Source: a virus
Lineage: Duplodnaviria; Caudoviricetes
Strand: one strand, 5' to 3'
IMG/VR virus record: IMGVR_UViG_3300036951_000320
Coordinates: 8,446 to 72,445 of that record
Length of the DNA stretch: 64,000 nt
Positions 2,345 to 59,719 of this stretch are shown here, piece after piece. A program made the translations under genes and the position numbers. The first letter of the stretch is position 1. The number at the start of each line of letters is the position of its first letter. Under the pieces are notes generated by a model. That model worked only from the letters and a program-made list of their open reading frames with translations. It was not told the origin of the DNA and made no database searches.

Positions 2345-2787
2345 GACGGCTTCGATCGGCGGCGGGGCAGTTGGTTACGGAAACACGTGTTTCCGTCGCG
2401 ACCCCGAAGGTGGGGGTAGTGATTCTCGATACGCGCCCCGTGTTCACTGTATCCCCCGAAAGTTTCCAACAGATCATGGTCGGCGAAGAAGTGCCAGAAT
2501 GCGAGGGGGCGATCGTGCGGGTGTTTCCACCGGAAGGAACGACAGAAGAAGGAATAGGCAACGTGGAATGGAAGCTTCGCGATTCGGGGGCGGTCGTGGT
2601 TCGCATGATGCCTACCCCCCGAACGTCTACGGTGACGGCGGATGCAAAGGCGGAGGTGGCAACCCCCATGGCAGTAACACGGACGATCCGGGGTGTCGTG
2701 GCGGAGCTTGTGGCACGTGCGAGAACGCGCAACCCGGATGCGCTTCGTGAGGTGGTCGAAGATGCTCTTGCGGCGGAGGAATTATGA
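2341..2787 (+). CDS. Probable C-terminal (capping / Rad50-binding) half of the SbcD-like nuclease, encoded separately
   Basis: ATGA overlap with the nuclease gene; GAIVRV...L...GAVVV pattern and a C-terminal helix pair; combined length about 390 aa. Confidence 0.5.
   Translation: MRRLRSAAGQLVTETRVSVATPKVGVVILDTRPVFTVSPESFQQIMVGEEVPECEGAIVRVFPPEGTTEEGIGNVEWKLRDSGAVVVRMMPTPRTSTVTADAKAEVATPMAVTRTIRGVVAELVARARTRNPDALREVVEDALAAEEL
2377..2396. promoter_or_regulatory. 20-bp perfect palindrome ACGGAAACACGTGTTTCCGT (copy 1)
   Basis: Exact match. Confidence 0.8.
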
Positions 2788-4796
2788 GCACGTATATTTC
2801 ACGGATGACGTTGCATAATTGGCTTCGATACCGTGGGGACCACGAAGTGTTTTTCGAACCTACGATCTATGGTGTCACGGCTTCGCACGAAGCGGATCCA
2901 GCGCGATCCAATTGGCTCGGGAAGACTTCGATCCTCGCGGGTGTTCGGTTCGCGCTATTCGGCACGCACCCCGCACGCACGGAAGACGAATGGATCACGC
3001 GAGGAGAAGCCGAAGGCTCCGTGCGGATCGAGCTTTCCGACGGGATGACGATCACGCGGGAGCGCAAGCGCGGGAGCGCAACGCGGCTCTTCGTGCGGTG
3101 GCCCGGACGTGAGGGGGAGCCGGCTACGGGAGCAGCGGCGCAAGCGGCGATCGTTGAAGCGCTCGGACTTACCGAGGGTGACTTCATGGCAACGTGCTTC
3201 TTCGAGCAAAAGAACCTTGCGCGCTTCGTGGTGGCGCGGCCAGCGGAGCGACAAGAGATCGTGGCGGGTTGGTTACAGCTTGGGAAGCTTCAAGCGGCGG
3301 AATCTCGGACTCGCCGAATACTCGGGGAACGAATTGATCGAAAGACAACGCTTGTGGCAAAGCGTGATGCGATGAAGGGAGAAATTGTTGCGATCCTAGC
3401 GTCACGCTTTGACGCTGTGACGGATGCGGATGCGAACATGAGCAAGCGGGCAGAATCAGAACAATTTATGATTGAAGCAGTGTTCGATCTTCAAAATGTT
3501 CGCGATGCTGCGAAAGCTGTTGCAGAGGAAGCGCGGGAGGCATACCGGAGGCGTGAGGCATGGGAAAAGGCATCGGCGGCACGGGAAGCTTTTGATCGAG
3601 CGGTGGCCAGTGTGGAGGAAGCGAATGTGCGTCGTGAAAAGGCGATAGCGGACGCGGAAACGGCCCTTGCAGGCTTCGATGCCGCAAAGGTTGAAGCTTC
3701 ATTGCGAGACGCAACCAAAGCGCAGCAAGAGGCAATTGCGGCGCTAGCACGGGCGCGTGATACCGAATCGCAACGGGCGGCCCTTGCGTGCGGTGCATTC
3801 GATGGGGTGTGTCCCGTTGATGGGCACGTGTGTCCCGATGCGGAGATTATGAATGCGGCAAGAGAAGCGAACGAAATAAGTCTTCGTGAAGCGGTGAGCG
3901 AGCGGGTTCGTGCTGATAAAGCCGTAAGCAGCGCGAAAAATCGCGTTGAAGAGGCGTCGGAAAGCGCTCGAAGGATAGAAGCCTTGCGTGGGCAGATTAA
4001 CGCGTTGAAGAGGCATCCTGTGGCCGCAATGGGCGATCCTCCCCCGGACCCCGGGGAAGCCCCTCCGGTGGTGGACGCGGTGACACCATGGGATGCATAT
4101 CAAGCGGCGGAGGCGGATTATCGTGAAGCAGAACAGCAAGCCGATCGGTTGAGGCGAACCTACGATGGTATGGGGAAACTTGAAGGGGAGATAGCAGCGG
4201 CGGAAGCGGAGATTGACACGTTACGCGAGGCGGTGGCGATACTCGGGAGGCAGGGAGCGCAACGGGTGATAGCGGAGGGTGCGCTTTCGGAAATCGAAGA
4301 CGGAGCGAATGCGCTTCTTCGGGAGGCGGGGATTGATCTACGCGTTGTCGTGCGATGGAGCCATGAAGGGCAAGGACTTGCGACAACGTGTGAGGCGTGC
4401 GGGGCTCCGTTCCCGTCGTCGACGAAGGTGCGAGAATGCGCGAAGTGCGGGGCGACGCGCGGGGCGAAGATGATCGATCGGCTCGAAGTCGTGCTTTCGG
4501 ATCGGTCGGGTGCGGCGGATGATCTTGCGGGAGCGGCGATACAGCTTGCGGCGGGAGCATGGCTTCGAAAACAACGTAATGCGGCGTGGTCGGTGGCGTT
4601 GATCGATGAACCGTTCGGGGCGCTCGATGAAGCGAACCGGGGAGCCTTCGCGGTGCATTTGGCGGCGATGCTTCGGGGGCGCTACGGGTATGCACAAGCC
4701 TTCGTGATCGCGCATACTCGGGGCGTCATGGATGCCCTTCCGGGGCGCGTGGAAGTCACGGGTCGCGAGGCGGGGTCAAGTCTTCGGGTGGTGTGA
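2784..4796 (+). CDS. sbcC: Rad50/SbcC-like SMC ATPase
   Basis: MTLHNWLRY start, Walker A-like SNWLGKTS, FFEQ Q-loop, coiled coil with CPVDG hook, Walker B/D-loop LIDEPFGALDE, H-loop IAH. Confidence 0.88.
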   Translation: MSTYISRMTLHNWLRYRGDHEVFFEPTIYGVTASHEADPARSNWLGKTSILAGVRFALFGTHPARTEDEWITRGEAEGSVRIELSDGMTITRERKRGSATRLFVRWPGREGEPATGAAAQAAIVEALGLTEGDFMATCFFEQKNLARFVVARPAERQEIVAGWLQLGKLQAAESRTRRILGERIDRKTTLVAKRDAMKGEIVAILASRFDAVTDADANMSKRAESEQFMIEAVFDLQNVRDAAKAVAEEAREAYRRREAWEKASAAREAFDRAVASVEEANVRREKAIADAETALAGFDAAKVEASLRDATKAQQEAIAALARARDTESQRAALACGAFDGVCPVDGHVCPDAEIMNAAREANEISLREAVSERVRADKAVSSAKNRVEEASESARRIEALRGQINALKRHPVAAMGDPPPDPGEAPPVVDAVTPWDAYQAAEADYREAEQQADRLRRTYDGMGKLEGEIAAAEAEIDTLREAVAILGRQGAQRVIAEGALSEIEDGANALLREAGIDLRVVVRWSHEGQGLATTCEACGAPFPSSTKVRECAKCGATRGAKMIDRLEVVLSDRSGAADDLAGAAIQLAAGAWLRKQRNAAWSVALIDEPFGALDEANRGAFAVHLAAMLRGRYGYAQAFVIAHTRGVMDALPGRVEVTGREAGSSLRVV

Positions 4797-59130: not shown

Positions 59131-59719
59131 ATCGACGGGGCGTTGGGATGCAGCGGCGGCGCTTGAAGCAAGCGTCGGAGCGAATCCCGATGAACGCATG
59201 ATCGCCGAACGGCGAAGGCTCACGTCAACCCCGGACCCGAACGAGCCCGACCCGTGGGGGCTTGCTCCCGTCGCGACGGAAACACGTGTTTCCGTCAATC
59301 GGTGCCCCGATTGCGGGGAACCGCAATTTCACGCGCCAGGCTCGGGGTGGTCGTGCAAGAACGGACACGGCTTCGGCGAGCCGAGCGGCCCGGCGGAGAA
59401 CGCGGCGCCGACCCCGGCGAAGGTGGCGGGAGCGCGCAAGCGTGGGGCATCGGTGGCGATCAACGCAGGAACGCGAACGGTGACGGTGACGATCGGGAAG
59501 CAAGGGTTTGCTCCGATCCGGTTTCACACGTTCGACGTGGGGCCGGTTAGCATGACGGCGACCCTTGCGCCCGGCGATGACTTGCAAGAGGCGGCAAGGG
59601 GGATGCTTGAAGAGCTTGAAGTCGTGTTCCGTGGCGAATTTGAACGCACCATGGAGGCGCATTTCGCGCTTGTGAAGCGTGCGAGTGAGTGTGTTAGGGA
59701 GAATGGGGGCGAGCGGTGA
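59114..59719 (+). CDS. Hypothetical protein with a Zn ribbon
   Basis: RCPDCG...CKNGH. Confidence 0.6.
   Translation: MRRRSESTGRWDAAAALEASVGANPDERMIAERRRLTSTPDPNEPDPWGLAPVATETRVSVNRCPDCGEPQFHAPGSGWSCKNGHGFGEPSGPAENAAPTPAKVAGARKRGASVAINAGTRTVTVTIGKQGFAPIRFHTFDVGPVSMTATLAPGDDLQEAARGMLEELEVVFRGEFERTMEAHFALVKRASECVRENGGER
59276..59295. promoter_or_regulatory. 20-bp perfect palindrome (copy 8), intragenic
   Basis: Exact match. Confidence 0.8.

Follow-up and report, generated by a model that had tools for sequence, protein, structure and literature searches.

Dispersed perfect palindromes in a myovirus genome and its relatives, and a candidate Fis/NtrC-type protein that may read them

The palindrome array and its positions

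Here we analyzed a repeated 20-bp palindrome, ACGGAAACACGTGTTTCCGT, in a 64,000-nucleotide stretch of myovirus DNA (the window), together with the phage proteins that could bind it. The window corresponds to bases 8446–72445 of the 72,445-bp IMG/VR record IMGVR_UViG_3300036951_000320 (hereafter G000). Annotated genes include those for terminase, capsid, sheath, and tape measure, along with a replication and repair set comprising RecA-like, SbcD-like, and SbcC-like proteins, a helicase, DnaB, a primase, and a DNA polymerase. All G000 genes lie on the plus strand, and the coding share of the genome is about 95%. The palindrome has eight exact matches in the window, at 2377, 9069, 24301, 30156, 40180, 51970, 57098, and 59276, as an earlier sequence-only reading had listed them; the expected count is 0.01, and eight copies were reached in none of 100 shuffles. 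A ninth exact copy is found at base 2242 of the G000 record, 6.2 kb 5' of the window. The family is all-or-nothing, with no copies carrying one to five mismatches anywhere in the window, and at least six of the nine copies are intergenic or overlap a stop codon. An assembly or adapter artifact, which the earlier reading had named as a way the array could be spurious, is excluded because the flanks are unique to each copy and because relatives from independent metagenomes carry analogous arrays.

The exact 20-mer was found in no other IMG/VR contig. In metagenomes it occurred in two contigs only, both unrelated, and in 596 Gb of prokaryote genomes (GTDB) it matched once, which is at chance level. 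This single match lies in a metagenome-assembled genome of the Myxococcales (contig JAJZQG010000070.1, L092:2137-2162), where 26 nt are identical to the palindrome and flank of site 24301. The sole phage signal on that contig is a weak terminase-like match (25% identity), and the shared stretch may reflect chance or a very distant phage-derived segment.

The best capsid match of G000 to an isolated phage is 32% identical, a megablast of the tail region against cultured phages gave no match, and a terminase-based locus search found nothing. Capsid-, primase-, and DnaB-anchored searches of IMG/VR recovered about 25 lineages with genomes of 72–113 kb, some of which are referred to below by their handles (G001, G002, and so on). 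G000 thus belongs to an uncultured family. Its lifestyle is probably lytic, because searches for tyrosine and serine integrases were negative in G000, G001, G006, G008, and G009, with control genomes matching as expected. Direct terminal repeats are present in two relatives.

Within the window, the copy at 2377..2396 lies 33 nt past the stop codon of the SbcD-like gene, at an SbcD/SbcC junction that is also occupied in G001 and G010. The sequence-only reading had placed two copies inside open reading frames (ORFs), where they force the peptide TETRVS. This copy and the one at 59276 are indeed in frame and read TETRVS, and the latter (59276..59295) falls within ORF 59114–59719, whose G001 ortholog lacks the site. 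The copy at 2377, on the other hand, is probably intergenic and 5' of the true gene start, because an in-frame GTG follows at 2419 after a Shine-Dalgarno-like box, GGTGGGGG, and because the orthologous G001 site is intergenic. The copy at 9069..9088 sits 11 nt 5' of the ATG of ORF 9100–9381 in a region of variable small ORFs. Two copies overlap TGA stop codons, as had been noted: the one at 24301..24320, which is 13 nt 5' of the MuF-like head gene (24334) at a portal/MuF junction occupied in G001 and G002, and the one at 51970..51989, which covers the stop of ORF 50369–51970 at a junction occupied in G001 and G004.

The copy at 30156..30175 precedes the major capsid gene, and the same junction is occupied by unrelated palindromes in G001, G002, G006, G007, and G012. 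The copy at 40180..40199 separates the tail chaperone genes from the tape measure gene, a junction occupied in G001, G002, G004, and G008. Immediately 5' of it (window 39285–40162), ORFs 39285–39854 and 39689–40162 overlap in different frames upstream of the tape measure gene, which resembles the usual layout of tail assembly chaperones produced by programmed frameshifting. The copy at 57098..57117 lies in the last 15 codons of ORF 56500–57141, in another frame, about 470 nt 5' of the helicase gene.

A degenerate copy had also been reported at 18179. This element (18179..18198), just 5' of gene 18218–18748, carries six mismatches, and only its right half-site and center are intact. It is plausibly a decayed or weak site, since the same slot 5' of 18218–18748 holds true sites in G001, G002, G006, and G011. 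Elsewhere in the window, a 541-amino-acid DNA methyltransferase is encoded at 11392–13017 and has no ortholog in any relative examined.

Lineage-specific palindromes at shared junctions

The sequence-only reading had proposed to look for the sites in related phages. Nearly every one of the roughly 25 lineages proved to have its own multi-copy perfect palindrome, 16–30 bp in length and present in 7–23 copies, often at the same junctions. The complete genome G001 contains 17 exact copies and one near copy, and G006 contains 23 copies. The palindrome sequence differs between lineages; G001, for example, shares the outer ACGGA/TCCGT with G000 and differs in the inner 10 bp. The exact center is CG in 21 of 23 distinct lineage motifs, against a background of 39% among single-copy palindromes of the same genomes. 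The two departures are G006, where the center is an artifact of a nested sub-palindrome, and L110, which has GC.

Positions are shared to a greater degree than motifs. G000 and G001 are collinear with a DNA identity of only about 65–70%. Of the nine G000 sites, six share their gene junction with a site of G001: the sigma factor linker described below, SbcD/SbcC, portal/MuF, pre-capsid, chaperone/tape measure, and the position after gene 50369–51970. Two further G000 sites are in the same neighborhood as a G001 site. Across ten genomes with unrelated motifs, recurring junctions include pre-capsid (six genomes), just 5' of the helicase gene (eight), and chaperone/tape measure (five). For the close pair G001 and G002, identity is 94.9% in the flanks and complete in the sites (160 of 160 positions; P = 2e-4), and the sites are under purifying selection.

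One shared slot lies inside a gene. An extracytoplasmic function (ECF)-like sigma factor is encoded 5' of the window, at G000 bases 1687–2517 (Sigma70_r2, E = 1.6e-7), and every relative checked has it. The coding sequence for the linker that joins regions 2 and 4 of this protein contains a palindrome copy in G000, G001, and G004, each time at the same residue position, and in G006 and G008 a copy lies directly 5' of the gene. The linker peptide changes with the motif, reading TETRVS in G000 and DDRSSV in G001, and the constraint is therefore at the DNA level, which upholds what the two in-frame copies had earlier been taken to mean.

In G009 (L050–L054), a conserved asymmetric box (consensus GGGACAAACC) directly follows most of the 16 copies and precedes a ribosome-binding site. 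In G006 (L035–L039), the site is a 30-bp composite palindrome in which two nested CCAATTGG sub-palindromes surround an ATCGAT center, an architecture that suggests four binding units per site.

Several copies stand in a regular relation to putative promoters. The capsid and tape measure genes of G000 share one arrangement, in which a -35-like box begins exactly 5 nt past the palindrome and an 18-nt spacer separates it from a -10-like hexamer. By direct reading, the sigma-70-like promoter candidate at the capsid gene (30181..30210, plus strand) consists of TTGACT and CATTCT, beginning 5 nt past the palindrome. The candidate at the tape measure gene (40205..40244, plus strand), read in the same way, consists of TTGCGC and TACCCT, followed after 7 nt by the ATG of what would be a leaderless-type start. 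At the capsid and tape measure junctions of G001, G002, G004, G007, and G008, an offset of 4–6 nt leads to a TTG-type -35-like box (TTGACT, TTGCCA, TTGCCG); the boxes TTGACT or TTGCCA at an offset of 4–5 nt occur in G001, G007, and G008. Other copies in relatives lie 4–9 nt 5' of a -10-like hexamer that is itself 6–7 nt from the start codon, with the site covering the -35/spacer region. A strictly fixed palindrome-to-promoter register is not upheld across genomes. At sites 9069 and 24301, only a ribosome-binding site lies between the palindrome and the ATG. The common denominator of the sites is the gene junction, and the sign of any effect probably depends on context.

Leaderless-type signatures are not confined to the palindromes. 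Throughout the window (for example, at 40229–40244 and 52022–52038), a TANNNT-type hexamer, often preceded by TG, lies 6–7 nt before the start codon. This -10-like signature is found ahead of about one third of called genes and is similarly frequent in relatives.

A candidate binder and competing readings

Directly 3' of the primase gene, every lineage checked encodes a small Fis-type helix-turn-helix (HTH) family, usually as two or three tandem, fast-evolving paralogs, whose alignment is too divergent to anchor a locus search. The cluster occupies 62906–63617 of the window, and its first gene overlaps the primase stop by 22 nt. This gene (62906..63172, plus strand) encodes an 88-amino-acid Fis/NtrC-type HTH protein of the B-type, which matches Pfam HTH_8 at 27.8 bits against a cut-off of 22. 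Its predicted structure is a six-helix protein (pLDDT 88.6), and the nearest folds are the DNA-binding domains of NtrC4 and NtrC1 and Fis (PDB 3e7l, 4fth, 2m8g, 1ety). The paralog at 63348..63617 (plus strand), of the C-type, matches HTH_23 and HTH_29 below their curated cut-offs and joins the same family by jackhmmer. A third, weak, G000-specific member at 15793..16053 (plus strand) gives sub-threshold HTH matches and a family HMM E-value of 0.0014, and no orthologs of it were found in the relatives.

Covariation of the sites with a candidate gene had been suggested earlier as a check, and it is the B-type recognition helix that co-varies with the half-site beyond what phylogeny explains. In G000, G007, L098, and G010, B-type helices reading SRR(Q/H)L occur together with GGAA at one shared register of the half-site. 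In G001 and G004, which are closer relatives, the helices are altered and the half-site has GGAT. In Mantel tests of the B-type recognition helix against the half-site over 12 lineages, r was 0.56 (p = 0.0012), and 0.47 (p = 0.007) in a partial test on DnaB identity. With the paralog helix chosen objectively in 20 lineages, r was 0.41 (p = 0.0002; partial r = 0.37, p = 0.0002), as compared to 0.04 for the rest of the domain in the same proteins (p = 0.33; partial r = -0.00, p = 0.51). None of 265 11-residue windows of DnaB reached the B-type helix values (maximum r 0.55, maximum partial r 0.38). For the C-type helix over 16 lineages the relation was not significant (r = 0.19, p = 0.09; partial r = 0.12, p = 0.19); its contact positions do vary between lineages, without statistical tracking of the motif. 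The ECF-like sigma factor was rejected as the motif reader, with no covariation over 90 windows (maximum partial r 0.29).

A single sequence-specific factor that reads all copies, as first envisaged, is the best explanation of the array. NtrC-type DNA-binding domains and Fis are dimers that read dyad-symmetric DNA. With moderate confidence, we propose that the palindromes are genome-wide double-stranded operators of one phage-encoded dimeric protein, most likely that of 62906–63172. Three kinds of binder had been put forward from sequence, namely a ParB-like protein (5347–6009), an XRE fusion (53655–55025), and three Fis-HTH proteins. One of the last is the best candidate, and no homolog of either of the other two kinds was found in several palindrome-bearing relatives. 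The XRE fusion, found in only five genomes, was set aside for this reason, and the ParB-like protein is discussed below.

In the operator model, a dimer of the 62906–63172 protein would read the palindromes as duplex DNA, with both dimerization and binding predicted. Bound at junctions throughout the genome, it would set the transcription of the unidirectional gene train. At the capsid and tape measure promoters the protein could sit beside the -35 box, and at leaderless-type promoters of relatives it could occupy the -35/spacer region. Where the stretch from site to start codon contains no promoter, the bound protein might block read-through. The effect could accordingly be activation, repression, or a roadblock. 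A master regulator of late genes, as had been offered earlier, is too narrow a description, since the genes preceded by sites include replication, head, tail, and lysis-side genes.

Several observations weigh against this assignment. The covariation comes from 12–20 related lineages, paralog assignment is uncertain in the distant ones, and the Mantel test is sometimes too liberal. In G008, 18 sites coexist with a C-type paralog alone, and G001 and G004 have nearly the same motif with different B-type helices. The fold matches of the 62906–63172 protein are weak, with E-values of 0.6 or worse, and invariance of all 20 positions (30 in G006) is not obviously needed by a small HTH dimer. The promoter link is partial: a called start lies within 50 nt for 54 of 127 sites, and a -10-like hexamer in leaderless register is found at 26 of these 54 (48%, background 18–34%), with variable spacing. 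Finally, complementary GC-rich flank extensions occur in a subset of relatives' copies (19 observed and 8.3 expected, P = 0.001). These are mostly in G006 and G007 and are not a feature of G000 except at copy 40180, and some copies may double as hairpins.

Among the alternatives, the one that survives best is that another phage or host protein (an HTH paralog, the ECF-like sigma factor, or an unannotated core protein) binds the sites, or that they have a non-transcriptional role in replication, packaging, or compaction. We consider this unlikely. The lack of a B-type paralog in G008 speaks for another binder, as does the copy in the variable sigma gene linker of G000, G001, and G004. So do several universal proteins without annotation. 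Those at 6006–6467, 10043–10786, 18218–18748, and 59716–60252 gave no DNA-binding signal in Pfam, PHROG, or PDB and were not retained as binders; for 59716–60252 there is only a weak helicase-loader lead. The intergenic bias could merely reflect where a fixed 20-mer is tolerated, which would suit a non-transcriptional role. Conversely, neither the sigma factor windows nor the C-type helix tracks the motif significantly. A host factor is unlikely given that each lineage has its own motif and that the G000 20-mer is so rare in prokaryote genomes. The fixed 4–6 nt offset to -35 boxes at capsid and tape measure junctions in several lineages points to transcription.

A role of the palindromes as hairpins in polycistronic RNA, whether in termination, processing, or transcript stability and perhaps with a sequence-specific RNA-binding protein, is in our view quite improbable. 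Copies do lie between genes and on the transcribed strand, and each can fold into an 8-bp stem and a 4-nt loop at about -11 kcal/mol. Copy 40180, the sole G000 copy with an extended interrupted stem, reaches 16 bp (z = -5.6 vs shuffles), and the excess of complementary flank extensions in G006 and G007 also fits a hairpin. However, when the other seven window copies are compared with shuffled sequence, their folding shows no advantage or only a modest one. An intrinsic (Rho-independent) terminator, with a GC-rich stem and a U-tract, was rejected, as no T-run follows any of the eight window copies. No Rfam covariance model matched the window at gathering score. The loop positions are always self-complementary and the central CpG is conserved, neither of which a hairpin loop needs.

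Variation within lineages also bears on the choice between RNA and duplex DNA. In G007 (L040–L044), one A/T (W) position varies independently in the two arms, such that eight sites are paired and four are mismatched, with about 6.7 paired sites expected under independence. In G010 (L055–L059), most sites join two different half-site variants. These polymorphic sites look like transitional states of site evolution. Because independent half-site variation breaks hairpin pairing, it favors the reading of duplex DNA by a dimeric protein over hairpin formation in RNA.

It is very improbable that the palindromes are non-canonical parS- or KorB-type sites through which the ParB-like protein at 5347..6009 (plus strand) mediates partition, silencing, or condensation. 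This protein contains a ParB_N domain (39.8 bits) and matches PHROG "ParB-like partition protein" families. Similar to parS, the sites are palindromes with a CACGTG core in several dispersed copies, and KorB of plasmid RK2, which binds dispersed identical palindromes, also speaks for such a system. Unlike parS, the arms are reversed, and the 16-bp parS consensus (TGTTNCACGTGAAACA type) is not matched beyond the CACGTG core, which bears out the earlier statement that this is not canonical parS. The ParB-like protein is also not conserved with the palindromes: no homolog was found in G006 with its 23 sites, and G008 and G011, which have arrays as well, gave only marginal matches inside larger proteins. 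No ParA-type partner is present among the annotated proteins, although no search aimed at ParA was made, and the genomes look lytic, with terminal repeats. The centromere or condensation system that had been raised as an option found no support.

A selfish or recombination-driven short palindromic element, spread by copying in the manner of repetitive extragenic palindromes (REP) or miniature inverted-repeat transposable elements, has similarly little probability. The copies are exactly identical without near-copies, they often border lineage-specific genes, and recombination between repeats has been proposed for Cluster O phages (PMC4351075), but no target-site duplications or shared flanks were seen among the window copies, positions are kept between genomes only about 65% identical in DNA, and the motif co-varies with a protein's recognition helix. 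REP elements with their REP-associated tyrosine transposase (RAYT) were likewise rejected: the Y1 (IS200/IS605-like) RAYT transposase (PF01797) and integrases are absent from the five genomes searched, where control genomes matched, and the flanks are not conserved, where a conserved 5' tetranucleotide would be expected.

Known systems and implications for the family

Dispersed phage operators are already a known kind of element, and the G000 array resembles them in its near-identical dyad copies, enrichment at junctions, and absence from other genomes. Co-evolution of the site with a DNA-binding protein is seen as well, as statistical evidence for a binding that is itself predicted. The closest described parallel is found in Cluster O mycobacteriophages such as Corndog, where a 17-bp dyad repeat occurs in 34 invariant copies, many at junctions, and its binder is only suspected (PMC4351075). 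In both systems invariant inverted repeats occur throughout the genome; many occupy short gaps between genes or lie close to gene starts, and some are intragenic. In both, the sites are absent from host genomes, and a dimeric phage DNA-binding protein is suspected. The Cluster O sites have a 7-N3-7 form with a variable AT-rich center, whereas the palindromes described here are perfect through the center, span 16–30 bp, and contain a central CpG. In contrast to Cluster O, one phage family here has different motifs from lineage to lineage, and covariation supports a candidate binder.

The stoperators of Cluster A mycobacteriophages, bound by the L5/Bxb1 repressor, provide a precedent for a site consensus and a DNA-binding protein that co-evolve between lineages (PMC6550527, PMC9283540). 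Like the palindromes, stoperators are numerous and nearly identical, lie in short intergenic regions, and often touch a stop or start codon. They are, however, asymmetric 13-bp sites that are read by a monomer, oriented with transcription, and found in temperate phages. The G000 sites do not belong to this type, as they are perfect palindromes in phages where no integrase was found.

The candidate protein shares the HTH_8 signature and its nearest folds with Fis and NtrC domains. It differs in being only 88 amino acids long, with an extra C-terminal helix pair and neither receiver nor AAA+ domains. Fis binds degenerate sites, whereas the sites here are invariant, and the weak fold E-values mark a further difference. 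Conserved operators of one regulator that are scattered over a replicon, some of them far from promoters, are also known from the phiC31 repressor and its conserved inverted repeats, from P1 C1, and from KorA and KorB of RK2. These belong to temperate phages or plasmids and involve other regulator families, unlike the lytic-looking genomes and the Fis/NtrC-type HTH candidate described here. The present array is set apart by belonging to an uncultured family that is probably lytic, by its perfect dyads of even length with a conserved central CpG, by junctions that stay in place as motifs turn over from lineage to lineage, and by a Fis/NtrC-type candidate with statistical support.

A bolder extension, to which we assign a rather low probability, is that palindrome and HTH helix make up an "address code" that is specific to each lineage and diversifies fast. 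A single small Fis-like protein would use it to wire the whole transcription program through activation at -35 boxes, occlusion of leaderless starts, and roadblocks at junctions. The central CpG would serve as a shared structural anchor, and divergence of the code would insulate co-infecting relatives from one another. If true, this would amount to an immunity-like specificity in phages that lack lysogeny.

The sites can serve the annotation of these genomes as markers of operon junctions, and the comparison may help explain Cluster O-type repeats. A different palindrome and recognition helix in each lineage, built on one scaffold, offers a natural series for how Fis/NtrC-type HTH domains read DNA. 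The array and its candidate protein would thereby provide a testable pairing of cis element and trans factor for an entire family that has no cultured relative.

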